A stretch of 32,000 nucleotides of DNA from Candidatus Velamenicoccus archaeovorus (lineage in GTDB: Bacteria > Omnitrophota > Gorgyraeia > Velamenicoccales > Velamenicoccaceae), in contig NZ_CP019384.1 in NCBI RefSeq assembly GCF_004102945.1, positions 570,001-602,000 on the forward strand, read 5' to 3'. This document shows, in pieces, positions 7,050 through 25,539 of this stretch; position 1 is the first letter of the stretch, and the number at the start of each line of letters is the position of its first letter. The notes beneath the pieces are model-generated. The model saw only the letters and a list, made by a program, of their open reading frames with translations, was not told the origin of the DNA and searched no databases. Both the position numbers and the translations under genes were made by a program.

Positions 7050-7703
7050 ATGCAAAAATACATCACCCCTGCGGCTATGCAGCGGTTGGACAGACTGGCC
7101 GAAGAGAGATACGGCATTCCACCTTTGATTCTAATGGAGAACGCGGGCCGCAGTGCTGCGGAAGCGGTTATACGGCTGCTCAAAGGCAAAAGAAAGCGGG
7201 TTGTCTGTGTTGCGGGCCGCGGAAACAACGGCGGAGACGGTTTTGTCTGCTGCCGACACCTGCTGAACAAGGGTGTCCGCGTAGAAGCGTTCCTGATGGA
7301 TGGGAAGAAAGCATTGACGCCGGACGCCCGCCTCAACAGGGACATCCTTGAGAAGTCGGGATGCCCCGTGCGCCGGGTCGCGACACCGGCGGATGTCCGG
7401 CTCTTGCGTCAAAGCTTAAAACGCCGCGCCTGTGTCGTTGATGCCATCTTCGGCATCGGTTTTCGGGGCGCGCCCAGGACTCCTTACGATGAAGTGATCG
7501 CCGTCATCAATGCGTCCGGCAGTCCCGTTGTTTCGCTGGATGTCCCCTCGGGCCTCGACGCCTTGACAGGGCGCGCCCACGGCGCCTGCATCCGCGCCTC
7601 TGCGACCGTGACGTTCGGATACCCCAAAACAGGCCTTGCCCGTCACGACGGCCCTCTTTGCGCGGGCCGTATCCTTGTCGCAGACATCTCCCTGCCTCGA
7701 TAG
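7050..7703 (+). CDS. nnrE: NAD(P)H-hydrate epimerase (YjeF N-terminal domain only)
   Basis: Motifs LMENAGRSAAEAV, VCVAGRGNNGGDGFVCCRHL, VVDAIFGIGFRG and SLDVPSGLDALTG. Start set at the ATG at 7050 (MQKYITPAAM..). Confidence 0.8.
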   Translation: MQKYITPAAMQRLDRLAEERYGIPPLILMENAGRSAAEAVIRLLKGKRKRVVCVAGRGNNGGDGFVCCRHLLNKGVRVEAFLMDGKKALTPDARLNRDILEKSGCPVRRVATPADVRLLRQSLKRRACVVDAIFGIGFRGAPRTPYDEVIAVINASGSPVVSLDVPSGLDALTGRAHGACIRASATVTFGYPKTGLARHDGPLCAGRILVADISLPR

Positions 7704-7757
7704 TCACCAGCCGGACCCGGTGTTTTTCCAGGAAGATATACCGTCTTACGGGGTATT

Positions 7758-7785
7758 TTGTATTTCGGCGGTTCTCCTGTATAAT
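7758..7785 (+). promoter_or_regulatory. Candidate sigma70-type promoter upstream of crcB
   Basis: TTGTAT (7758-7763), a 16-nt spacer, then TATAAT (7780-7785). It sits 49 nt upstream of the crcB ATG in the only sizeable intergenic gap nearby. Confidence 0.3.
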
Positions 7786-7833
7786 AAGGACAAGTTGTTT
7801 TCTCTTTTAGGCTCCATCAGCGAAGGATATGTC

Positions 7834-9385: not shown

Positions 9386-10863
9386 TGCCGGTATCCATTG
9401 AGTTCATTTTGCTCTGGGTTTCTGTACTGATTTTGATCAGTATTTTTTCAAGCAAGCTTTCGGACAAGTTCGCCGTCCCGGCGTTATTGTTGTTTTTGAT
9501 CATCGGGATGCTGGCGGGATTCGAAGGGCCCGGCGGGATCTATTTCGACGATCCGTATCTGGCGAAGACGATCGGCATCATCGCGCTCATCTTCATTATC
9601 TTTTCAGGCGGCCTGGACACCAGTTGGAAAGAGATCCGTCCCGTGGCCTTGCCGGGTTTTTTCCTCGCGACAGCCGGCGTTTTCCTGACGGCCTTCATCG
9701 TCGGGGTCTTCTCCGTCTTTATCCTGAAGTTTTCGCTCTTGGAGGGGCTATTGCTCGGCGCCATCGTTTCTTCCACGGATGCGGCGGCCGTCTTCAGCGT
9801 CCTGCGGTCCAGGCATATCAGTCTCAAGAGCCCTCTGAAGCCGATGCTTGAGCTGGAATCCGGCAGCAACGACCCCATGGCCGTCTTTTTGACATTGAGT
9901 TTCATCAGCATGCTGACGGTGAAAAACATAGGCGTCATCGCCTTGACGTCTCGTTTCGTGCTGGATATGGGCGGCGGCGCTCTTGTGGGATATGCCATGG
10001 CGAAGATGAGCGTCTGGCTCATCGGTAGGCTTAAGCTGGAATACGACGGGCTTTATCCGGTCCTGACGGTTTCGCTGGTGCTCCTGACGTATTCGCTGGC
10101 CGCGCTTTTGCAATGCAACGGGTTTCTGGCGGTTTTTCTGGTCGGATTGATCATGGGGAAGCATGAGTTCCTCAACAAAAAAATGATCATGAGGTTCCAC
10201 GACGGCCTTGCCTGGCTCATGCAGATCGTAATGTTCCTGACGTTGGGCCTTTTGGTTTTTCCATCCCATCTTTTGCCGGTCATGGGTGCGGGCCTTTTGA
10301 TTGCGATCGTCCTGATGGTCCTGGCTCGTCCCGTCAGCGTCCTGATGTGCCTTCTGCCATTCCCGATGGTCCTGAGGAAAAAGATCATGGTGGCGTGGGT
10401 GGGTCTCAGGGGCGCGGCGCCGATTGTCCTGGCTACTTTCCCTTTGCTTGCAGGCATTCCGCAGGCGGATACGATCTTCAACGTGGTTTTCTTTGTCGTC
10501 CTGACCTCAGTTCTGATCCAGGGGACATCCATTCCTCTTGTTTCACGGATCCTGAATGTTGACGCCCCTATGGCCAACAAGCGCCGCTATCCCATTGAAT
10601 TCGAGAAGATAGAAGGCATCGATGCGGAATTGACCGATCTGATCGTTCCTTATGTTTCAGAAGCGGTCGGCAAGCAGCTTATGGAATTAAACATGCCGGG
10701 CAAGTGTCTGATCGTGCTGATTTCCCGGGGGGACAGGTACATCATTCCTGCAGGCCAGACGGTCATTGAGGGCGGCGACGTATTGCTTGTGCTTGCCAAT
10801 GAGCACGACCTGGCTGCATTGCAAAAAAAACTGGCAAGCCTGAGGGAAGAAGACAATGCGTAG
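9385..10863 (+). CDS. Monovalent cation/H+ antiporter (NhaP2/CvrA type) with a C-terminal TrkA-C (RCK_C) domain
   Basis: About 11-13 hydrophobic segments and the ESGSNDPMAV motif typical of CPA1 exchangers. The C-terminal soluble domain (VSEAVGKQLMELNMPGKCLIVLISRGDRYIIPAGQTVIEGGDVLLVL) is TrkA-C-like. TGATG overlap with the previous gene. Confidence 0.85.
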   Translation: MPVSIEFILLWVSVLILISIFSSKLSDKFAVPALLLFLIIGMLAGFEGPGGIYFDDPYLAKTIGIIALIFIIFSGGLDTSWKEIRPVALPGFFLATAGVFLTAFIVGVFSVFILKFSLLEGLLLGAIVSSTDAAAVFSVLRSRHISLKSPLKPMLELESGSNDPMAVFLTLSFISMLTVKNIGVIALTSRFVLDMGGGALVGYAMAKMSVWLIGRLKLEYDGLYPVLTVSLVLLTYSLAALLQCNGFLAVFLVGLIMGKHEFLNKKMIMRFHDGLAWLMQIVMFLTLGLLVFPSHLLPVMGAGLLIAIVLMVLARPVSVLMCLLPFPMVLRKKIMVAWVGLRGAAPIVLATFPLLAGIPQADTIFNVVFFVVLTSVLIQGTSIPLVSRILNVDAPMANKRRYPIEFEKIEGIDAELTDLIVPYVSEAVGKQLMELNMPGKCLIVLISRGDRYIIPAGQTVIEGGDVLLVLANEHDLAALQKKLASLREEDNA

Positions 10864-11215
10864 GTCCCGGCGGAGACAAGGATCCAGGACGAAAAAACGA
10901 AAATTCAGGAGGAACGGCAGGTTTTTTGTCTATATCGTTGAATGCAGCGACGGCACGTATTATACGGGCTATACCCCTTGTTTGAAGAGACGGATCGGGC
11001 TGCACAACAAAGGCAAAGGCGCCAGGTATACGCGGGACAGAGGGCCGGTGAAACTCGTCTGGCACAAGCGGTACCGGAATTTCAAGCCGGCCTTTTTGGA
11101 AGAAAAGAGGATCAAGACCTTGACCCGTAGGCAAAAAGAGGCCCTGGTGAAGGGGCTCAAGTCGAGGGTAATCCTCAAAAAGGGCGGACGATCGGTAAAG
11201 AGGGGCCGTCGATGA
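10856..11215 (+). CDS. GIY-YIG nuclease-family small protein with an Arg/Lys-rich N-terminal tail
   Basis: FFVYIVECSDGTYYTGYT....R...HN.G.GA.YT matches the GIY-YIG (YhbQ-like) core. It overlaps the antiporter stop by 8 nt. Confidence 0.75.
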   Translation: MRRSRRRQGSRTKKRKFRRNGRFFVYIVECSDGTYYTGYTPCLKRRIGLHNKGKGARYTRDRGPVKLVWHKRYRNFKPAFLEEKRIKTLTRRQKEALVKGLKSRVILKKGGRSVKRGRR

Positions 11216-16948: not shown

Positions 16949-16991
16949 CGGTCCGGTTTTGTCTGTTTGCTGCGCGGACGAGGAGGAAGAT

Positions 16992-17675
16992 ATGAACGGG
17001 AAATTGGTGGAGAATATCGCCAACAATATGCGGCCCAAAGACACCCGGGAATTGCTCGATCTTTACGTAGAAAATGACAGGGAACAATATTCCGAGGAGG
17101 CGTTCGAGGCGATCAGGCAATTGTTCCGGGAGAGGGGGCAGTCCATCCCTGCGCAAAAAGAAACGGCGCCGGCGAAGGAACAGGATGCGGCCGTTTCCCA
17201 GGCTGAAATTGAAAAGTCCGTAAAAATCAGCAGGAATACGCTGTTGATATGGGGGTGCATCGGGACGGCATTATGGTTTTTTGCCGGCGCCGAAGACAGA
17301 AGGATCATCACGGTCCATTTCGAGCCTCTCAGGCCTTTGCTGTGGTTCCTTGTATACGGCGGCTTAGTCATCGGCCTGATTATGCTCGCTTTAGGCATCT
17401 CGGCATTTTTCATCAAAAAAACCAAAACTCTGTTATTGACCGGGCTCATGTTGATGATGATCGGGATATTGAATATTGGATATCCCTTTTTGATCTCTTG
17501 GGCCCTTGGGGAATACGGCCACGACGTTGATCCGGCAGCAATCATTTTCGATGCAGGAAATAAATTCTGGATATTTCTCGGATTATTGCAGATGGGATGG
17601 GGTGTCACCAATGTTGAGATGTATCTGAAAATAAGACGCCATGCAGCCGCAGACAGGGTATCTTCAATCCGTTGA
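16992..17675 (+). CDS. Hypothetical membrane protein (soluble N-terminal helix region plus ~5 TM segments)
   Basis: The ATG at 16992 is preceded by aggaggaaga. Hydrophobic segments run from about aa 85 onward. I recognise no family. Confidence 0.55.
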   Translation: MNGKLVENIANNMRPKDTRELLDLYVENDREQYSEEAFEAIRQLFRERGQSIPAQKETAPAKEQDAAVSQAEIEKSVKISRNTLLIWGCIGTALWFFAGAEDRRIITVHFEPLRPLLWFLVYGGLVIGLIMLALGISAFFIKKTKTLLLTGLMLMMIGILNIGYPFLISWALGEYGHDVDPAAIIFDAGNKFWIFLGLLQMGWGVTNVEMYLKIRRHAAADRVSSIR

Positions 17676-17708
17676 TACAAGTCGTGCAGCGATCACCTGG
17701 GAGATGAG

Positions 17709-18521
17709 ATGAAAAATCTATGTTGGGTTTTATTGGGCACGGCATTCTTGGCGGGATGCGCCGCGAACAAGGTTTACGTGAATCCCGAGAAGACCATCCG
17801 TGAGATGACTCTCGACGAGACGGAGTGCCGGACTGTGGCCGATGCCTCGGACCTTCAAGATGACGCCGGCAGAAAAAAGGAATACGACCGATGCATGCAA
17901 CAGAGAGGTTACAGGCTTGTCGCGGAAAAGAACGCCAGGCGCGTCAAAGGTTTCAAGGAGGTATGGGTTGATCCTCTCGTGGATTTTAAAGTTTACGAGG
18001 CCATTGTTATCGACAAGGTGGATGTCAGCGAGGTCCAGGTCATGAATATGCGGGGGACCCCCGGCACAAAGGTCTCGGATGCGGATATCGACAGGCTTGC
18101 CGAGCGCATGCGTGACCGTTTCTCTGTCTTTTTGGGCGCGGTGCTGCCTGTCGTGCCGCAAGAGGAAGCCGGAAAGAGAAAGATTCTGCGCATCCGTCTG
18201 AGCCTTTTGGATATCGCTACGACGAATATCGGTGTTAACATCGCCCTGCAGGCCGTGCCCGTCCCTTATATGCCTGTTTCTTCAAAGGGATTGTTCAGTT
18301 TTGAAGGCACGATCACGGATTTCTCCAGCGGGAAAAAACTGGTGACGATGGCCGACAAGACAGGTTCAGGCAAAAATTCTTCTTTGATCGGCCTGGAAAA
18401 ATTCGATAAATGGAAATATGCCTATGAGACCATTGATTACTGGGCGGACTGCCTGGCGAAGTTCCTGGCCGACAAGCGGGGGGAACCCTATAAGTCCCAG
18501 CTTAAATTCAAATTTATTTGA
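17709..18521 (+). CDS. Putative lipoprotein (possibly DUF3313-like)
   Basis: Lipobox LLGTAFLAGC at the N-terminus. The family assignment is only a recollection of the F.VYEAIVIDKVDV-type motif. Confidence 0.65.
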   Translation: MKNLCWVLLGTAFLAGCAANKVYVNPEKTIREMTLDETECRTVADASDLQDDAGRKKEYDRCMQQRGYRLVAEKNARRVKGFKEVWVDPLVDFKVYEAIVIDKVDVSEVQVMNMRGTPGTKVSDADIDRLAERMRDRFSVFLGAVLPVVPQEEAGKRKILRIRLSLLDIATTNIGVNIALQAVPVPYMPVSSKGLFSFEGTITDFSSGKKLVTMADKTGSGKNSSLIGLEKFDKWKYAYETIDYWADCLAKFLADKRGEPYKSQLKFKFI

Positions 18522-18580
18522 GAAAAAACGATGCGGCACATGTTTTATCAGGGATATTCGACAAGGGGGAGCGGATCATC

Positions 18581-19342
18581 ATGAAAAGATGGTATGAGGC
18601 GTTGTTTGAGAATTATGCGCATAAATACGATCAAGAGTGTTATGTCCATGGAACATCCGGGGAATGTGATTCTATTGAACAGGAGATAAACCGCGATAAG
18701 TCAATAAAAATCCTGGATATCGGCTGCGGCACAGGCCGCCATGCCATTGAATTGGCGAAAAGAGGATATAACGTGACCGGCATCGACTTGTCGGCGGCGC
18801 AGCTCAAAAGGGCAAGGGAAAAGGCCCTAGAGGCAGGGGTGACCATCGACTTTCAGAAGCACGACGCCAGAAATCTTCCTTTTCAGGGCGAATTCGGTCT
18901 GGCGATCATGCTCTGTGAGGGCGGTTTTTCTTTGATGGAAACGGATGAGATGAATTTTGAGATACTTAAAGGCGCGACCAGGGCGTTGAAGAATAATGGG
19001 AAGTTCATATTCACCACATTGAACGCCTTGTTTCCGCTGTTTCATTCGGTAAAGGAATTTTATGGATCGGCGGGTAAAGAAGGGGGTTCGGTTTGTAAAA
19101 GCATATCCTTCGATTTGATGACGTTCCGCGATCATAATCGCGTTGAATTTGAAGATGACGCAGGGAATAAAAAAACATTGGAATGCAATGAGCGATGTTA
19201 TGTCCCCAGCGAGATCACCTGGCTGCTTCATTCGCTTGGATATAAGAAGATAGAGGTTTCTGGAGCTAAGCTCGGGGCATATTCAAGAAACGACAAGCTG
19301 ACCACCGAAGACTTTGAAATGCTCGTCATCGCTGAAAAATGA
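18581..19342 (+). CDS. Class I SAM-dependent methyltransferase
   Basis: Motif I ILDIGCGTGRH, followed by VTGIDLS and the acidic loop HDARNLPF. Start set at the ATG at 18581, after aaggggga. Confidence 0.85.
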   Translation: MKRWYEALFENYAHKYDQECYVHGTSGECDSIEQEINRDKSIKILDIGCGTGRHAIELAKRGYNVTGIDLSAAQLKRAREKALEAGVTIDFQKHDARNLPFQGEFGLAIMLCEGGFSLMETDEMNFEILKGATRALKNNGKFIFTTLNALFPLFHSVKEFYGSAGKEGGSVCKSISFDLMTFRDHNRVEFEDDAGNKKTLECNERCYVPSEITWLLHSLGYKKIEVSGAKLGAYSRNDKLTTEDFEMLVIAEK

Positions 19343-19352
19343 AAGAAGATAA
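19280..19352 (+). repeat. Direct repeat copy 1 (73 bp): last 63 nt of the methyltransferase CDS including its stop, plus 10 nt beyond
   Basis: Compared base by base, it is identical to 22309-22381 (tattcaagaaacgacaagctgaccaccgaagactttgaaatgctcgtcatcgctgaaaaatgaaagaagataa). Confidence 0.95.
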
Positions 19353-19491
19353 AAAAGTTTTCATTAAAAATTTCGGCTGACCGTTGATACAAGCTTGCCC
19401 TGAGCGAGCGACGCGAGTCGAAGGGTGGCGCGTGATGATTTTAGGCATTCGAAGGAAGTTAACTGATGAGCGCGAAAGGAGCTATTGAACA

Positions 19492-20277
19492 ATGAGCAAT
19501 GAATCGGCTGCAGTGATAAAAAACAGAGTTCCGCATATTATCTTTTTGTATTGGGTGATTAAGATAGTCTCGACCACTCTTGGCGAGACCGGCGCCGATA
19601 TGTTTTCCATGACGTTTAAGCTGGGCTATTGGGAAACGATCTTGATCTTTATGGGTTTATTTGTGATATTTCTGACGGTCAAACTTGCCTTGAAAGGCTA
19701 TCATCCCTGGATGTATTGGCTGACTTTTACCGCATCGGCCATAGCTGGTACAGCCATATCTGATTTCATCGATCGCACCTTGAAACTTGGCTATGCAAAA
19801 GGGGCCTTGATTTTAGTGGTACTTCTATTGATAATTCTCGCCGCCTGGTACAAGAAAGAAAAATCAATAAATGTTGAGTATATTACGACCTTCAGGGCTG
19901 AGTCTTTCTATTGGGTGGCATTTTTGTTTGCTAATACGCTGGGAACGGCCGCAGGAGATTTTCTTGCCGACAACATGGGGCTTGGATTTATGCACAGCGC
20001 AGTTTTGCTGTCAGCAATGCTTGTTGTTATAGCTCTGCTGCACTTGTATACCAAGGTTTCCAGTGTGATGTTATTCTGGCTGGCATTTGTTTTGACAAGG
20101 CCTTTTGGGGCTGCGTTTGGCGATCTTCTTACTAAACCCCATGCCTCAGGTGGATTGAATCTTGGAACGATTGGATCTTCGATTGTTATTTTGACAATTC
20201 TGTTTCTCGCGATTTCCAAAGAGTCTATGCTAGAGAAAGGAAGATTGGCAAGACATAAACACGGGCAATGGACATGA
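19492..20277 (+). CDS. COG4705-like polytopic membrane protein with an internal triplicated motif
   Basis: RBS aaaggag. Motif YW.IKI.STTLGETGADMF recurs as FYWVAFLFANTLGTAAGDFL and LFWLAFVLTRPFGAAFGDLL. I recall this as the uncharacterised COG4705 membrane family. Confidence 0.65.
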   Translation: MSNESAAVIKNRVPHIIFLYWVIKIVSTTLGETGADMFSMTFKLGYWETILIFMGLFVIFLTVKLALKGYHPWMYWLTFTASAIAGTAISDFIDRTLKLGYAKGALILVVLLLIILAAWYKKEKSINVEYITTFRAESFYWVAFLFANTLGTAAGDFLADNMGLGFMHSAVLLSAMLVVIALLHLYTKVSSVMLFWLAFVLTRPFGAAFGDLLTKPHASGGLNLGTIGSSIVILTILFLAISKESMLEKGRLARHKHGQWT

Positions 20278-20296
20278 AGAAATTAGAGGAGGCGCA

Positions 20297-20983
20297 ATGA
20301 GAAGGCCGGTAGCTCTTTATCCGTTTCATCTTCTTCTGGTTTGTCTGATAATTTTTATTTGCACAACTGGATATTGCGCGGCGCAGGATATTAAGGGGCC
20401 GGTGCCGGGAATAATTATTTCCGCCGCGGAGAACACGGAAGACGCAATAGACCGTTATCGAGCAGGTGATTGGGAAGGTGCAAAAAAGGTCGTGGACGAT
20501 ATAACCCTTAAAAGTCAGGATATTGAAGATATGCTTATAAGTAGCACGTTGCCGACGTCATCGCTGTATGAGTTTGGTTATTTGTTATTCAGGTTGAACG
20601 TGTTGACATCGGACAGAAAGAGCGCTGATCAGGCAGCGCTGACCGCGAATCAAATAACAGCGTTGCTGTTGGACCTTCAAAATCTTTATGAACAGATAAT
20701 TCCCGGCGAGATCGGCTGGATGGATTATCTGGGAAGAGAGATCGCGTTGTTGTCGAAGGTCGGTGAGAGTCATGGTCTGCTTAATAAGCGGATCGAACAG
20801 TTGAGCAGCGTATGGGGCAGGCTAAAACCTCGCGTTGAAGAGAAAAAAGGCCTTGAGGTCATTGCGGAGATGGATCGGACTATCAATGAACTAAAGGTCC
20901 AGAGGTCCCATTCCCGCATAACGATCCTTGCGGATACGATGCTTGAGTTGGTAGATAAGCTGGAAACCCTGTTCGAGAAATAA
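20297..20983 (+). CDS. Hypothetical secreted, mostly helical protein
   Basis: RBS agaggagg. Signal-peptide-like HLLLVCLIIFICTTGYCAAQD. It starts 20 nt after the membrane protein. No recognisable motifs. Confidence 0.55.
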   Translation: MRRPVALYPFHLLLVCLIIFICTTGYCAAQDIKGPVPGIIISAAENTEDAIDRYRAGDWEGAKKVVDDITLKSQDIEDMLISSTLPTSSLYEFGYLLFRLNVLTSDRKSADQAALTANQITALLLDLQNLYEQIIPGEIGWMDYLGREIALLSKVGESHGLLNKRIEQLSSVWGRLKPRVEEKKGLEVIAEMDRTINELKVQRSHSRITILADTMLELVDKLETLFEK

Positions 20984-21126
20984 TGAAGATATAAAAGGAG
21001 CTGAATTGCAAAAAAAGTTTTTCTCCGCACCCATGGTTGACTGCTGATGCAAGTGACGCGGAATGGCACTGGAGGTCTTGGAAAAGACGGGCGCTTGGGA
21101 ATATAGGAGTTATAAGGTTTGGGATC

Positions 21127-21172
21127 TAATTACCCAACAAGATGCACAATATTATTACTTGTTGGGTAATTA
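21127..21172. promoter_or_regulatory. Perfect 15-bp inverted repeat (candidate operator)
   Basis: TAATTACCCAACAAG (21127-21141), a 16-nt spacer, then CTTGTTGGGTAATTA (21158-21172). A third half-site TTACCCAACAAG lies at 21188-21199, inside the adjacent promoter spacer. Confidence 0.6.
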
Positions 21173-21177
21173 TTTTA

Positions 21178-21206
21178 TTGACATTTGTTACCCAACAAGT
21201 TATATT
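21178..21206 (+). promoter_or_regulatory. Strong sigma70-type promoter for the 21239-22238 gene pair
   Basis: TTGACA (21178-21183), a 17-nt spacer, then TATATT (21201-21206). A CTGTTA-gg-TAACAG palindrome and the RBS aggaggggg follow before the ATG at 21239. Confidence 0.55.
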
Positions 21207-21238
21207 ATAGTGTAGTCTGTTAGGTAACAGGAGGGGGT

Positions 21239-21559
21239 ATGCGAGGCGTAATAAAAGGGGTACTGGCGGAAGAGCTTGAAAATTCTCTTCGGATGAAAAA
21301 AGAATATGAGGAGGCTTTGAGCAGATTGCCTAAAGGGTGTCTTGCGCCAAGAAGGATACGTGGCCATGAATATTATTATCTGGTAAACAGGATAGGTAAA
21401 AAGGTAAGGTATGTCTACAAAGGAAAAATATCTCAAGAGGAAAAAAAGAAATATCAAGAGACCAAAGAATTAAGAGCAAAATACCGAAAATTATTGTCTC
21501 AAGTCAAAAAACAAATAAAATTCTTAAGGAGTTCTTTGCGTGGAAAAGAAGCAATCTGA
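21239..21559 (+). CDS. Small basic coiled-coil protein, putative partner or regulator of the downstream nucleotidyltransferase-fold protein
   Basis: 106 aa, Lys/Glu-rich. The central RRIRGHEYYYLVNRIGKKVRYVYKG looks like a beta-hairpin. It overlaps the next gene by 20 nt. I recognise no family with confidence. Confidence 0.6.
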   Translation: MRGVIKGVLAEELENSLRMKKEYEEALSRLPKGCLAPRRIRGHEYYYLVNRIGKKVRYVYKGKISQEEKKKYQETKELRAKYRKLLSQVKKQIKFLRSSLRGKEAI

Positions 21560-22238
21560 TTTATGCCTGGAAATCTTAAGAAGGTTCCATGCGGCAGGCA
21601 TCTTGGATGATTTAATTCTGATAGGCAGCTGGTGCGTTTATTTTTACCAGGATTATTTCGCGGGCGTGCCGTACATTGATCAAGCTGCCATAAAAACCAG
21701 AGACATCGATTTTTTGATTGATGCTCCTTCTAAGATAAGACATAACGTAAGCATCCCTGAGATTTTAAAGGATTTAGGCTTCGTTACCATTTATAAGGGT
21801 ACCAAAGGATACATCAAATTAGATCACCCGGAACTTATTTTAGAGTTTTTGGTTCCCGAAAAAGGAAAAGGTGTAGACAAGCCGGTTCCGCTTCCGAAGC
21901 TGGGTGTTAATGCCGTTGCCTTAAGATTTTTAAGCTTTCTCTCCGGCAATACCATTAAAGTTGAAGTAGAAAATTTCTCCGTTACTTTGCCCCATCCTGT
22001 CAATTTTGCACTTCACAAATTGATCATCTTTCAATGCAGGTTCAGGGAGGGAAAAGCGATAAAGGATAGAAATACCGCTGTCGAAATTTTGAAAGCATTG
22101 ATTAAGAAGGGGGATGTGGATATTCTTCTACAGATTTTTAATTCCATGATTCCAAAATGGCAGAAGAAAGTAATAAAGGGGTTGGAAGAAGCAAAAGAGA
22201 AAGATATTCTGAATATATTGGATAGAGATAAATCATGA
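21540..22238 (+). CDS. Nucleotidyltransferase-fold (pol-beta-type) protein, toxin-antitoxin-like
   Basis: GTG start 8 nt after aaggag. Minimal NTase signature hG-S (G29-S30, LILIGSW) and D-x-D (D55-I-D57, TRDIDFLID). The size and helical C-terminal half resemble AbiEii/GSU2403-type NTase-fold proteins. Confidence 0.7.
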   Translation: MEKKQSDLCLEILRRFHAAGILDDLILIGSWCVYFYQDYFAGVPYIDQAAIKTRDIDFLIDAPSKIRHNVSIPEILKDLGFVTIYKGTKGYIKLDHPELILEFLVPEKGKGVDKPVPLPKLGVNAVALRFLSFLSGNTIKVEVENFSVTLPHPVNFALHKLIIFQCRFREGKAIKDRNTAVEILKALIKKGDVDILLQIFNSMIPKWQKKVIKGLEEAKEKDILNILDRDKS

Positions 22239-22284
22239 CAGGAAATTCAGAAGCGATCCAGCGCCGGGCTCCCGAACCATTTAG

Positions 22285-22371
22285 ATTTTCTGGGCCAGAT
22301 TGGATGGGTATTCAAGAAACGACAAGCTGACCACCGAAGACTTTGAAATGCTCGTCATCGCTGAAAAATGA
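22285..22371 (+). pseudogene. Orphan 3' fragment of a SAM-methyltransferase gene (displaced copy)
   Basis: Reads IFWARLDGYSRNDKLTTEDFEMLVIAEK* directly after a TAG. The last 21 codons are nucleotide-identical to the end of 18581-19342. The preceding ~24 nt are diverged but alignable (tttctgg shared; AKLGAY versus ARLDGY). Confidence 0.7.
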
Positions 22372-22381
22372 AAGAAGATAA
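22309..22381 (+). repeat. Direct repeat copy 2 (73 bp)
   Basis: Identical to 19280-19352. Identity stops abruptly at both ends. Confidence 0.95.
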
Positions 22382-22419
22382 TTTTTAGACAATGTTCGAA
22401 CGAAGGATAAACGGCAGCT

Positions 22420-23496
22420 ATGACTATGCAAAAGGGAATGCAAATCAAACAGCATGAGGTGTTACCGCTGAGGGCGCCTTTAAGCCAGCCTTTTCGTACC
22501 GCGTTTGGTCAGCACGACACCTTGGATAATCTTCTTTTTAAGATTGAACTGAACAATGGTGTCGTGGGTTTTGGCGAAGCGGCGGTGGCCACGCACATCA
22601 CCGGCGAAACGCTCTCGCAAACGCAAAATAACCTTAAAAAGTGCGGGCAGAGTTTGTGCGGGCGTAATGTAGCCGACTATTTAAGCATCTCGTCTGCGCT
22701 CCACCGGCAGGTGCCGGACAACAAGGCCGCGCTTGCCGCTGTCGAAATGGCGGTTTTTGATGCGCTGGCGCGTTCTTTAAAGATACCGTTGTGGCGATTC
22801 TACGGCGAGAGGCCGGTAAAGCTGCATACCGATATTACGATCGTCATCGATAGCGTAGAAAACGCCCGAAAGAAGGCGCGCGAATTCTACGTCCGCGGTT
22901 TCAGGGCGTTTAAGATTAAGATCGGCCGTGATAGAGACCAGGACCTGGAACGGGTAATTGCGGTAGCCAAGATCGCCAAGAATTCAAAATTGTATTTAGA
23001 CGCTAATCAGGGTTATAGTGCGGAACAAACCTTAAAGTTCCTCAAAGACCTGGAAACATATAATATTATTCCCGATCTCATCGAACAACCGGTTCCCAAA
23101 AATGACAGGGAAGGGCTGAAAAAGGTGACGCGCCTTGCCAAAACAAAGGTTTGTGCGGACGAAAGCGTAAGGGATATGGCGGATGCCATTTGGGCGGTCA
23201 AGGAAAAGGCTTGCGATGTGATTAATATCAAGTTGATGAAATGCGGGCTTGTCCAGGCAAAAGAGATTGCGTTTTTGGCCAGGGCCAATCGCATGGGCCT
23301 TATGGTCGGCGGGATGATGGAAAGCAGCCTTGCCATGACCTGTTCGGCGCATATCGCATCCGGATTGGGATTCATTGATTATGTCGATTTGGATACGCCG
23401 TTCTTTTTGAAGGACAGGCACAGACATAAATTCCTTTCAAAGAGCGGGGAGTATGATCTCAGCAAGACAAAAAGTGGAATAGACATAATACCTTAA
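22420..23496 (+). CDS. Enolase-superfamily dipeptide epimerase (L-Ala-D/L-Glu epimerase-like, MR/MLE family)
   Basis: Motifs FKIKIGRD, LYLDANQGYS, IEQPVP, CADES, INIKLMKCGL and DLDTP give the characteristic K-x-K / D / E / D / K catalytic spacing. Confidence 0.85.
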   Translation: MTMQKGMQIKQHEVLPLRAPLSQPFRTAFGQHDTLDNLLFKIELNNGVVGFGEAAVATHITGETLSQTQNNLKKCGQSLCGRNVADYLSISSALHRQVPDNKAALAAVEMAVFDALARSLKIPLWRFYGERPVKLHTDITIVIDSVENARKKAREFYVRGFRAFKIKIGRDRDQDLERVIAVAKIAKNSKLYLDANQGYSAEQTLKFLKDLETYNIIPDLIEQPVPKNDREGLKKVTRLAKTKVCADESVRDMADAIWAVKEKACDVINIKLMKCGLVQAKEIAFLARANRMGLMVGGMMESSLAMTCSAHIASGLGFIDYVDLDTPFFLKDRHRHKFLSKSGEYDLSKTKSGIDIIP

Positions 23497-23500
23497 AGAA

Positions 23501-24670
23501 ATGGTCACAGATCCTTACGCCGTCATCGCCATCTTGGTTCTCATTGAGTTTTGTGTCCTGTATTTTTCCGGCAGGCAAAGATTTAAAAAATATTTCCATT
23601 TCATCCCGCCGGTTTTCTGGATCTATGCCATCCCTATGCTTCTTTCTTCGCTGGGCCTCATAGCCGCGGAAAATCCATTTTATAATATCATCGCATCCAA
23701 CCTGCTTCCGGCCAGCCTTGTTCTTCTTCTGCTGAGTACGGACCTTAAGGCGATCTCGAGGCTCGGTAAAAAGGCCTTGATGATGATGTTGAGCGGCAGC
23801 CTCTCCGTCATGGTTGCCGTCCCCGTGGTTTTTTATCTTTTTAAAGGCATAGTCGGTAACCGCATGTGGAGCGGTTTTGGCGCGCTTTCCGCCTCATGGG
23901 TGGGAGGCAGCGCCAATATGGTGGCCGTCAAGGAGGCATTAGGCGTCCCTGAACAGGTCTTCGCCCCCATGCTTGTCGTAGATACGGTCGTGCCTTATGT
24001 CTGGATGGCATTTTTGATCGCGGTCGTCGGGATGCAGAACATTTTCGATCAAAAGGTCAAAGCCGATAGCAAAGTCATGGAAGAGCTCAAGCGGCATCTG
24101 AGCGGCCGCCAGGAGCTTAAAAAAAGTTTTTCACCAAAAGGGACTTCTTGGATTATTTTTACCGCCGTGGCCGGCGTGGTTATCTCCAGGGTTTGCGCTT
24201 ATTACTTGCCGGCCGTTGAGAATACAATCTCGACATACACCTGGACAATCATCCTTGCCTCAACCCTGGGTGTTTTGTTGTCGCTGACGCCGGCAAGGAA
24301 ACTTGAACAGTCAAACTCGACCCTGTTCGGCTACTGGCTTTTATATTTTGTGCTTGCGACTATCGGCGCCAAGGCTTACATTCGCGATCTCAACGCTGCT
24401 TTGGTGCTTATTGGGGCGGGGTTTTGCGTGATCATTTTGCACGGCTTGATGATCGCCGCCTCCGCCAAGATAATACGCGCACCGATGTTTTTGGCAGCTG
24501 TTGCCAGTCAGGCGAATATCGGCGGCCCGGCCTCTGCGCCGGTTGTGGCAGCGGTATATCAGCCGGCATTGGCTTGCGTAGGAATCTTAATGGCGGTCTT
24601 GGGAAATTTGCTTGGAACATACACAGGCATTATCACCGGTTATGTCTGTAGATTAATTGCAAAGGCATGA
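23501..24670 (+). CDS. DUF819-family polytopic membrane protein (putative transporter)
   Basis: About 10-11 TM segments with WVGGSANMVAV and ANIGGPASAPVVA motifs, as I recall for DUF819. It starts 5 nt after the epimerase stop. Confidence 0.65.
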   Translation: MVTDPYAVIAILVLIEFCVLYFSGRQRFKKYFHFIPPVFWIYAIPMLLSSLGLIAAENPFYNIIASNLLPASLVLLLLSTDLKAISRLGKKALMMMLSGSLSVMVAVPVVFYLFKGIVGNRMWSGFGALSASWVGGSANMVAVKEALGVPEQVFAPMLVVDTVVPYVWMAFLIAVVGMQNIFDQKVKADSKVMEELKRHLSGRQELKKSFSPKGTSWIIFTAVAGVVISRVCAYYLPAVENTISTYTWTIILASTLGVLLSLTPARKLEQSNSTLFGYWLLYFVLATIGAKAYIRDLNAALVLIGAGFCVIILHGLMIAASAKIIRAPMFLAAVASQANIGGPASAPVVAAVYQPALACVGILMAVLGNLLGTYTGIITGYVCRLIAKA

Positions 24671-24760
24671 TGCGTAAACTATCGGTTCTGTTTGTTGCTT
24701 GGATAGGGAGGCGGTTTATTTTTAGGAGCCGATGAGCGCACGCGTATGTGGAAGGGAGAA

Positions 24761-24828
24761 GGTCTACCCTTTTCGGGTTAGGTCCTCCTCTATAACGGTA
24801 TGCGGAGACCTACCCTTTCTGGGTAACC
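24761..24828. promoter_or_regulatory. Two imperfect 45-nt-spaced copies of a TACCC-N5-GGGT(A/T) palindromic box
   Basis: ggtcTACCCttttcGGGTTagg at 24761-24782 and agaccTACCCtttctGGGTAacc at 24806-24828, in the 294-nt gap upstream of the TPR gene. Confidence 0.3.
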
Positions 24829-24836
24829 CCGCAGAG

Positions 24837-24869
24837 TATCGGAAAAATATCGAAGAGATTTTTCCGATA
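24837..24869. repeat. 12-bp AT-rich inverted repeat or hairpin
   Basis: TATCGGAAAAAT (24837-24848), loop atcgaagag, then ATTTTTCCGATA (24858-24869). The two arms are perfectly complementary. Confidence 0.5.
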
Positions 24870-24900
24870 TCTTACGAGGCACAGGTCTCCAGGAAAGAAA

Positions 24901-24920
24901 CCCCTGGCTTTAGCCAGGGG
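24901..24920 (-). terminator. GC hairpin, terminator-like only on the minus strand
   Basis: CCCCTGGC-ttta-GCCAGGGG. On the + strand it is preceded by aggaaagaaa, which is a U-rich tract after the hairpin when read on the minus strand. No T-run follows it on the + strand. Confidence 0.3.
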
Positions 24921-24964
24921 AAATTCATTGTGAAGCGTTGTTTCGAGAAAAAAGGAAGGGCGAC

Positions 24965-25525
24965 ATGAACGTTAAAGGTTTTTGGGTTTGTTTGTTACTT
25001 TTTTCTTTAGTTTCTTTTAACCTAGCATATTCTCAAGAAGAGTATGCTTGTTCGGGCCAAGCGAAGGAATTTGGATTGGAAGGTTCTCGATTAATGCAAC
25101 AGGGCCGTTTTCTCGAGGCAATCGATAGCTTTAAAAAAGCTTTGAATTGTGACTCGAAATGTCTGGTTGCCTATTTAGGAATCGGGGGTTGTTATTCTTC
25201 TCTGGGAGAGTACGAAAAAGCAATAGAAACATATGAGTCGGCTATTAAAGTGATACCGAGATATGCTTCGGTTTTTCGGAATAGTATCGCAGCGCAATAT
25301 ATGTTTCAAAAAGAGTACGAAAAAGCAATAAGTTATCTCAAGGAATCGCTGGAATTATTTCCTGAGGACCAACAAACATTTCTTGCTTTAGGCAGCGCTT
25401 ACTATAAAGCTGGAGATTTCCTGAATGCAAAGGATAATTTTCAGAAAGCATTAAATATTAGTTTGAAGAAAAACGATGATGCAACAGCTAAAGTAGCGCA
25501 AGACGCCCTAAACGCAATCCCGTAA
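24965..25525 (+). CDS. Secreted TPR-repeat protein
   Basis: The ATG at 24965 follows aaaggaaggg. Signal peptide FWVCLLLFSLVSFNLAYSQ. At least four TPR-like units (..AIDSFKKALNCD.., ..AIETYESAIKV.P.., ..AISYLKESLELFP.., ..AKDNFQKALNI). Confidence 0.8.
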   Translation: MNVKGFWVCLLLFSLVSFNLAYSQEEYACSGQAKEFGLEGSRLMQQGRFLEAIDSFKKALNCDSKCLVAYLGIGGCYSSLGEYEKAIETYESAIKVIPRYASVFRNSIAAQYMFQKEYEKAISYLKESLELFPEDQQTFLALGSAYYKAGDFLNAKDNFQKALNISLKKNDDATAKVAQDALNAIP

Positions 25526-25539
25526 TATTTCGTGATATA

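Follow-up and report, generated by a model that had tools for sequence, protein, structure and literature searches.

Within a 32,000-nt stretch of the chromosome of Candidatus Velamenicoccus archaeovorus (contig NZ_CP019384.1, positions 570,001 to 602,000; hereafter the window), an intact gene for a class I S-adenosylmethionine (SAM)-dependent methyltransferase (MT) is followed by a recent, integrase-less insertion of two gene cassettes via a duplicated gene junction. Relative to the corresponding site in related genomes, the window carries a clean insertion of 3,029 bp, which constitutes a genuine insertion polymorphism and is bracketed by a direct repeat of the junction (coordinates of all features are given in Table 1).

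The two copies of the repeat are identical at 73 of 73 bases, as stated in a preliminary description made from the sequence alone, and the bases bordering them differ (A/G on the 5' side and A/T on the 3' side). This pair is the sole long repeat within positions 17000-25000, and a 73-bp match cannot have arisen by chance in 32 kb. The same description held that copy 1 completes an intact methyltransferase and that copy 2 is the tail of an orphan fragment, and both points were borne out: copy 1 holds the 63 nt that close the 253-aa gene and 10 nt more, and copy 2 forms the tail of an MT fragment that has no gene in front of it. In the final 14 nt of copy 1, ATGAAAGAAGATAA, a miaB-type gene start and the MT stop codon overlap (ATGA). 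In a related locus (L001; loci are denoted by L numbers), a gene for a miaB-type radical-SAM tRNA methylthiotransferase starts exactly at the MT stop (MKEDKKKVFIKNFGCQMNVRDSE...), as it does in many other Omnitrophota; comparable MT-miaB junctions were found in L001, L030, L010 and L017, and the UPF0004/Radical_SAM/TRAM architecture of the miaB-type gene was seen by Pfam in L081 and L152. Past copy 1, the miaB-like frame continues in register (AAAAGTTTTCATTAAAAATTTCGGCTGA, encoding MKED-KKVFIKNFG and a stop) and then departs from miaB; the miaB-like sequence of copy 2, and that of every empty site, ends after 14 nt. Since the last 14 nt of the repeat are miaB-like and the left end of the insert continues the miaB 5' end in register, we read the 73-bp repeat as an MT-3'/miaB-5' junction, of the kind present in other Omnitrophota.

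The insert terminates in an orphan MT 3' end of ~100 nt. In front of copy 2, in-frame homology to MT reaches back ~30 nt, to ~22279 only, and blastn alignments of this piece to other MT genes extend to 22277-22285. Scored in register against a position-specific profile of 79 MT genes, these 30 nt rank in the top 8e-5 of the 30-mers of the window, which shows that they really are MT-derived, although strongly diverged (5 bits, compared to 32 bits for the real gene). In frame, the fragment reads IFWARLDGY, compared to VSGAKLGAY in the window gene and IFGAKLGAY in the family consensus. A heptamer, tttctgg, had been noted as shared between gene and fragment upstream of copy 2; it lies one base out of register, but the stretch that contains it is indeed a diverged MT homologue. 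Such uneven divergence also occurs in a natural MT gene (L065), which matches the window gene at 87 % over the last 63 nt and at 53 % over the preceding 36 nt.

Several other interpretations of the repeat and of the MT gene were tried and rejected. Folding of the repeat region together with the miaB-like sequence behind copy 1 was no better than that of shuffled sequence (z = -0.09), and no significant hairpin was found in the 73 bp when the single-strand fold was compared to shuffled sequence, which rules out an attC-like hairpin. No tRNA was found at the 73 bp, ruling out a tRNA or tmRNA as the target, and Rfam returned no match there apart from one sub-threshold chance match, ruling out a known structured RNA. 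A second MT paralogue in the same genome (a 254-aa cluster member) proved to be the same gene with another annotated start, and the EVSG motif of the window MT is not a scar of the event, as the empty L092 already has EISG.

The empty site was found in nine contigs of three lineages (L092/L093, L085-L087 and L088-L091), which were reached through cluster members, exact look-ups of the MT and epimerase proteins of the window having returned no record. All nine share the order PPDK_N - small gene(s) - DUF3313 - MT - epimerase - DUF819, with ~48 nt from the MT stop to the epimerase start. Base by base, this site equals the left flank of the window, one 73-bp copy and the right flank (TTTTTAGACAATG...), so that the empty site predicted by the preliminary description, with MT followed by the epimerase gene, is present in all three lineages, with one 73-bp copy each. 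The single copy is identical to those of the window in L092 and L093, and differs from them at one position in L085 and at three in L088; beside the insert, a single difference separates the window from L092 in 450 nt on the left, and there is none in 175 nt on the right. The preliminary description had further proposed that the element supplies a replacement gene end and displaces the original, but this cannot be said, because both copies equal the empty-site sequence. Donor-derived single-nucleotide differences were sought in the flanks as well, and none adjoins the insert. The only cluster (18874-18897, inside MT) lies ~380 nt away and packs into 24 nt six of the few positions at which L092 departs from the window, which looks like a short recombination with, or conversion from, another MT allele. 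An MT-like gene upstream of the epimerase in L094, considered as an older empty site, proved to be an unrelated methyltransferase.

It is highly improbable that the insertion is an assembly artefact, in which a foreign 3-kb piece from another organism or strain was joined via a 73-bp overlap. Short-read assemblers can be misled by repeats of such sizes, but the window is part of a 1,974,201-bp contig, and each junction is in register with a meaningful homology, the left one with the miaB-like reading frame and the right one with that of MT. Even for a false join, a molecule bearing the 73 bp at either end of the insert would have to exist, and 73 is unlike the k-mer sizes usual in assemblers.

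The 2,956 bp between the copies have a G+C content of 42.5 %, compared to 53.4 % upstream and 48.2 % downstream (17/60 on the line starting at 21421), in agreement with their earlier description as AT-rich. They hold four open reading frames (ORFs), as had also been described, though rather than forming one set of cargo genes these are arranged as two separate, co-oriented cassettes, each led by a pseudo-miaB 5' end. The first of these sites (site A) comprises a short ORF, MKEDKKVFIKNFG followed by a stop (19339-19380), a core, TTCGGCTGACCGTTG (19372-19386), and a tail that reaches to GTGATGATTTTAGGCAT (19432-19448); it was defined by alignment with the MT-downstream sequences of L005, L025, L030, L017, L031, L010 and L041, and compared with the true miaB start of L001. 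Behind it lie genes for a DUF347 membrane protein and for a 228-aa protein with a signal-like segment. The DUF347 protein is 70-83 % identical in amino acids to Omnitrophota metagenome homologues in other contexts, which match the window over the coding region only, none of them adjoining MT, the secreted protein or site A. The 228-aa protein had no match in Pfam, NCBIfam, PADLOC or PHROGs, is the lone member of its 90 % cluster, and had no relative in the metagenome contig scan.

The second cassette is led by site B, in which, at 21009, its nucleotide homology to L067:4391-5592 begins. It encodes a 106-aa protein and a nucleotidyltransferase-fold protein (NTP_transf_8), a module that is 75 % identical in nucleotides to that of L067 and recurs in L030 and L027. 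The 106-aa protein is 63-86 % identical to its counterparts in L027, L030 and L067, where it is always paired with an NTP_transf_8 gene. The palindromes around its promoter are found again upstream of the homologous modules in L067, L030 and L027, and in L030 there are matching changes in both half-sites. Because it consists of two overlapping genes, one with a PF12281 domain, with a promoter of their own set in palindromes, and because the pair is conserved, the module looks like an autoregulated toxin-antitoxin-like system; it had no relative in PADLOC or PDB. Among 15 billion proteins, the cargo proteins had no relative at 90 % identity or more, and viral contigs yielded only unrelated pieces in the case of MT, and no match to NTP_transf_8 or to a strict pseudo-miaB pattern. 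The functions assigned to the cargo are predicted ones.

Based on sequence identities, the tree of the locus is ((window, L092), L085, L088), with L152 (85 %) as the outgroup, on which parsimony requires one gain in the lineage of the window, compared to two or three independent losses; from this we infer that the event was a gain. The opposite direction, in which the ancestor already had the filled site, the 73 bp was homogenised by gene conversion from the functional MT, and the relatives deleted the block between the repeats, strikes us as quite unlikely, as at least two or three independent deletions would be needed, one of them in L092, ~1.1-1.4 % from the window. The cargo, moreover, has not ameliorated (38-47 % G+C, compared to 53 % upstream), loss of a toxin-antitoxin-like module would be selected against, and no relative retains a trace of the block. 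Nonetheless, a deletion between the 73-bp repeats yields exactly the observed empty site, and elsewhere a full-length pseudo-miaB site normally follows MT, as at copy 1, the 14-nt stub being what follows the orphan fragment and sits in the empty sites. The ~30-nt extension of the orphan also looks old, and DUF347 recurs in other loci: in L081 it precedes the epimerase by a few genes, and in L107, L119 and L115 it lies ~2 kb upstream of miaB or, in the case of L115, of a pseudo-miaB site.

As to how the cassettes were gained, the ends of the inserted DNA are informative. It begins with AAAAGTTTTC at 19353 and closes with ...GGATGGG at 22308; its left end extends the homology to the right of the repeat, and its right end, the diverged MT piece, extends it to the left, such that the insert joined head to tail forms one uninterrupted MT-3'/miaB-5' junction of ~145 nt. 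This is a circular-permutation signature, and it points to a single reciprocal (Campbell-type) crossover with the chromosomal junction. The account that we favour, with a moderate degree of confidence, is that a circular DNA of two cassettes integrated by reciprocal crossover at the shared junction, by means of host homologous recombination, the latter being the most likely agent because the insert encodes no recombinase; both the circular intermediate and the RecA-type reaction are inferred. The circle would plausibly have been excised from another array, by recombination between two pseudo-miaB sites, and the recipient chromosome would have borne the same MT/miaB junction, cut to 14 nt of miaB. 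One crossover between the junctions of circle and chromosome would then produce the observed order, with the shared segment at both ends. Strand exchange would have been confined to the 73 bp, since on the left the incoming MT piece would have been too diverged for it and on the right the chromosomal homology stops after the 14-nt stub, and heteroduplex within the 73 bp would have been corrected to one sequence, leaving two identical copies. The event would represent one turnover step of the cassette region between MT and miaB.

Sites such as A and B are common in related loci. A profile of the MT-downstream sequence gave 79 matches in 1.5 Mb of loci, 78 of them on the strand of MT and miaB. 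About 25 of the 79 are true miaB starts, with a Cys codon, then CA[AG]ATGAA, and a long ORF; the remaining ones are decoys, which have TGA or TGG at the Cys position, then CCG[AT]TGG, and lie 60-370 nt upstream of the next ORF, which may be of any kind and is often MT. The short ORF of the decoys reads M..KKVF[IL][RK]TFG-stop or ...FGWPMADL-stop, their core is TTCGG-NTG[AG]-CCG[AT]TGG, and their tails are further decayed miaB coding sequence. The derived changes that distinguish them from true miaB are common to most decoys and form a small dyad, CGG-NNNN-CCG; the sites belong to no Rfam family. In other arrays, near-perfect direct repeats of 28-130 nt bracket single cassettes and have their edges at the decoy core, the repeat in L029 being nearly as long as the one described here; the 73-bp repeat adds a further example to these cassette-bracketing repeats. 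Between relatives, the breakpoints at pseudo-miaB sites fall at more than one position.

A possible reading of these observations, which we put forward tentatively, is that Omnitrophota possess a hitherto undescribed cassette system akin to integrons, in which the decoys act as recombination sites. Its primary attachment site may be the 5' end of miaB, each cassette may carry a decoy, and the small dyad core may result from the changes in the decoys (Cys codon to TGA or TGG, and CAGATGAA to CCGWTGG). The cassettes, MT among them, may be moved in trans by a recombinase or nuclease, be it a host enzyme or the product of one of the GIY-YIG genes described below, and the 3-kb insert may be a two-cassette circle caught shortly after its entry into the strain. 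As far as checked, pseudo-miaB cassette arrays have not been described, and no paper linking Omnitrophota with miaB was found.

Several points weigh against integration of a circle by host recombination. The donor was not found among 90 % clusters, metagenome contigs or viral contigs, and a 3-kb circle that lacks replication and transfer genes needs a delivery route, none of which we can name. Homologous recombination is inefficient over ~73-105 bp of partly diverged sequence, and the two identical copies presuppose an identical donor segment or full mismatch correction toward the recipient, which we assume. The choice of gain over loss rests on parsimony over four lineages only. Lastly, the boundaries of the repeats in other arrays lie at one defined core, TTCGG-NTGR-CCGWTGG, which would fit a site-specific enzyme better than general recombination.

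Such an enzyme could be an integrase, for which the MT-3'/miaB-5' junction would be attB, the copy on the element attP, and the 73 bp the att core, with the integrase either supplied in trans, by another element or by a gene in a different part of the genome, or since lost. We regard this as unlikely, albeit with evidence in its favour. The identity spans the interior of a gene to just past its end and the insert bears a diverged extension, as in islands that restore a gene end, and the insertion is clean relative to the empty site. The direct repeats around cassettes in L029, L025 and L038 have an edge in one and the same 4-nt segment of the pseudo-miaB core, the derived changes of the decoys form a partial dyad, CGG-NTGR-CCG, and the sites are co-oriented in 78 of 79 cases. 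However, the chromosome with the empty site has no pseudo-miaB core, only 14 nt of miaB being left, and offers no substrate for a core-specific enzyme, and the MT 3' end is not duplicated in any of ~80 other MT loci.

An integrase was moreover not found. None was detected by Pfam and NCBIfam among the ORFs of the 2,956-bp interval, nor any recombinase gene in the 32-kb window (all ORFs of 17709-31211 and further window ORFs), in agreement with the preliminary description; a phmmer search of the window with XerD and Hin gave no match. There is no integrase among ten ORFs of inserts that occupy this position in other genomes (these include a radical SAM protein, DUF2971, ArsP, AbiEii and LysR), and recombinase-like ORFs are rare in related loci (5 in 1.5 Mb) and inconsistently linked to the arrays. 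Nor was a transposase domain found (Pfam), or terminal inverted repeats at the ends of the insert, whose duplication of 73 bp, homologous to the insert ends, differs from the short target duplication of transposons. Of the earlier proposal that this is a site-specific integration at a gene 3' end (attL/attR), the repeat, the orphan and the empty site stand, but nothing indicates a dedicated integrase. Because this defining enzyme was looked for and not found, we do not class the insert, on present sequence evidence, as an integrase-borne integrative element.

The wider setting is consistent with integration of a cassette circle as one of many exchanges. In loci in which miaB is in view, it either adjoins MT or stands 0.8-7 kb away, the space between being filled with unrelated, co-oriented genes, and the MT-to-miaB interval is thus a variable region of Omnitrophota, with the MT gene as its left, conserved border. 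In L152 and L153, the left flank of the window is followed by MT, three small genes, miaB, SPOR/TPR, miaA and hflX; in the window, the interval exceeds 12 kb and miaB is not reached. The left flank PPDK_N - DUF3313 - MT is common to L085-L092 and L152, and the content of the co-oriented array differs among the window, L092, L085, L088 and L152. The suggestion that the insert is part of a larger composite island is supported to the extent that the locus sits in this variable cassette region.

The MT gene may itself be mobile. Its protein is 70-91 % identical across Omnitrophota, Ignavibacteria, Bacteroidales, cyanobacteria, Elusimicrobia and others (L001-L080), the homologues being 253 aa long in many genomes, and their neighbours hardly ever match. 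Many genomes have a decoy site 57-230 nt in front of MT. This wide spread, with almost no conserved neighbours and a decoy upstream, suggests that MT is a mobile cassette.

Table 1. Features of the window and of related loci. Coordinates are those of the window unless a locus is named.
Feature	Location	Strand	Remarks
Intact class I SAM-dependent methyltransferase (MT), 253 aa	18581..19342	+	Pfam Methyltransf_25 E = 8e-21, also Methyltransf_11/31
Direct repeat, copy 1	19280..19352	none	Final 63 nt of MT, with the stop codon, and the 10 nt after it
Pseudo-miaB site A	19339..19448	+	nhmmer E = 3e-9 to 4e-11; insert DNA from 19353 on
Cargo gene 1, DUF347 membrane protein, 261 aa	19492..20277	+	PF03988 E = 4e-56
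Cargo gene 2, 228-aa protein with N-terminal signal-like segment	20297..20983	+	No known family
Pseudo-miaB site B	21006..21064	+	Leads second cassette; nhmmer E = 1e-6
Two palindromic operator-like repeats (TTACCCAACAAG...CTTGTTGGGTAA)	21130..21227	none	Overlap the sigma-70-type promoter
Strong sigma-70-type promoter, TTGACA-17-TATATT	21178-21206		11/12 matches; lies inside the two palindromes
Cargo gene 3, 106-aa partner protein	21239..21559	+	No known family; overlaps next gene by 20 nt
Cargo gene 4, nucleotidyltransferase-fold protein (NTP_transf_8)	21540..22238	+	PF12281 E = 1e-21
Diverged orphan MT 3' end piece	22279..22308	+	Borne by the insert; in-frame TAG at 22282-22284
Direct repeat, copy 2	22309..22381	none	Followed by native DNA upstream of the epimerase gene, TTTTTAGACAATG...
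Dipeptide epimerase, right flank	22420..23496	+	Pfam/NCBIfam scans
DUF819 membrane protein, right flank	23501..24670	+	Pfam/NCBIfam scans
Decoys in the window	19339-19448; 21006-21064; 25849-25997; 26996-27063
Decoys elsewhere	L029 2599/5461/8274; L038 5642/7652/7774; L025 6853/7897/8759; L067 4392/6666; L030 3609/7914/10034; L085 13183; L088 16098; L092 18164/18297
L029 repeat	L029 2565-2637 and 8240-8313		74 nt, 98.6 %; ends at ...TTCGG
L038 repeats, two adjacent pairs	L038 5553-5685 versus 7686-7818		78 nt (98.7 %) and 48 nt (100 %); flank a 2-kb cassette
L025 repeat	L025 7932-7959 and 8803-8830		28 nt; starts at CCGTTGG; flanks MT
Empty-site relatives, V. archaeovorus metagenome-assembled genome GCA_041890195.1 and read-run assembly	L092, L093		98.6-98.9 % to the window over >12 kb of shared flanks
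Empty-site relatives, other assemblies	L085-L087		~93.6 % identity to the window
Empty-site relatives, other assemblies	L088-L091		~93.9 % identity to the window
Downstream array, conjugation genes	L085-L087 and L092		TraG_N, relaxase-like, coupling protein, TraE
Downstream array, transporter genes	L088-L091		ATP-binding cassette (ABC) transporter, DsrE/TauE
Downstream array of the window	window		Hydrolase, then low-G+C block with PADLOC candidate defence gene

Further observations concern the neighbourhood. Downstream of DUF819, conjugation-type genes (and superinfection immunity) lie directly behind a decoy in L085 (13418-20762), L086, L087 and L092 (18670-20137), and the window instead has the TPR gene, the hydrolase and the defence-like block. 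That block (26996-32000) has a G+C content of 36.5 %, starts right at a decoy site, and encodes a 417-aa protein matching the PADLOC candidate defence family PDC-S54 (E = 1e-125), a 330-aa protein with a ParB_N domain and a 505-aa protein of no known family; the retrieved stretches of L085-L092 do not contain it. Between the TPR gene and the decoy that follows it, an intergenic region of ~54 % G+C (25541-25848), rich in inverted repeats, is kept in L088 and L092, and gave no convincing ORF and no Rfam match. Upstream of DUF3313, a gene for a 238-aa membrane protein (16959-17675) is intact in the window, L092 and L088, and in L085-L087 two short fragments of it are left (52-aa ORF).

In more distant relatives, these same genes occur in other orders: L081 (8373-13628) has DUF347 - deaminase - cupin - epimerase - DUF819 - miaB, and L084 (8604-13789) has hydrolase - epimerase - DUF819 - NlpC/P60 - MT. 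A pool of genes appears to shuffle upstream of miaB, with DUF347, the epimerase pair and MT among its members. Genes with a GIY-YIG nuclease domain (~100-120 aa) are found in 12 MT loci, several of them immediately upstream of MT or miaB (for example, window 10856-11215, L067 11529-11822, L152 10584-10877, L032 7667-8029 and L044 6060-6377), and their products might produce the DNA breaks from which cassette exchange starts.

Taken alone, the insert is a modest and fairly ordinary finding, and the pseudo-miaB arrays are the interesting part. Two strains, ~1 % apart, of an uncultured predatory (archaea-killing) bacterium differ by a freshly exchanged accessory block, and this block lies in an Omnitrophota hot spot, extending from the conserved MT to miaB, in which co-oriented cassettes (toxin-antitoxin pairs, defence candidates, transporters and conjugation genes) are separated by decoy miaB starts, with no integrase in sight. 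Should the decoys be true recombination sites, they would represent a new way of building cassette arrays, and would open a way to study gene flow in a phylum for which metagenomes are almost the only source.

Among known systems, e14 and phage 21 reside in the 3' end of icd and SXT/R391 elements in the 5' end of prfC. Similar to such gene-end islands, a direct repeat of the end of the target gene brackets the insert here, the gene is intact, relatives have an exact empty site, and the insert bears a partly diverged extra piece of the target gene. The dusA-specific islands are described as integrating in the 5' end of dusA (PMC4482086). Like them, the Omnitrophota arrays have as their recurring target the 5' end of a tRNA-modification gene, miaB. 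Unlike gene-end islands, the insert has no integrase in or next to it, nor do the arrays have one consistently, it is only 3 kb long and consists of two cassette-like units, the duplicated segment spans a two-gene junction (MT 3' end and miaB 5' stub), and the chromosomal site lacks the conserved pseudo-miaB core.

Integrative mobile elements exploiting Xer (IMEX) and pdif modules are integrase-less, accumulate in tandem at a chromosomal site, and are moved by a host recombinase in trans. The integrase-less cassettes described here, arranged in tandem, resemble such Xer-dependent modules, but neither the 73 bp nor the pseudo-miaB core resembles the 28-bp dif site, as judged by eye, and their location is a gene junction rather than the replication terminus.

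The arrays also resemble those of integrons, in that small, co-oriented and mostly promoter-less units of one to three genes alternate with a recurring short site, the units vary between strains, the cassettes lack a recombinase of their own, and toxin-antitoxin cassettes are frequent, as they are here. Unlike in integrons, there is no IntI in the window or the sampled arrays, the sites, which are so far candidate recombination sites, are decoy 5' coding ends of a gene and not attC hairpins (having no significant single-strand fold), and the array ends at miaB rather than starting at an attI beside an integrase gene.

The insertion itself also compares to Campbell-type cases, in which a plasmid or cassette circle integrates via a shared segment, or excises and reinserts between direct repeats. 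The shared segment is short here (73 bp perfect, ~105-145 nt in all), and the circle, its origin and its route of transfer are hypothetical. The order of flank, shared segment, insert, shared segment and flank is the same, and the ends of the insert continue the homology on opposite sides, an arrangement for which no enzyme of the element is needed.

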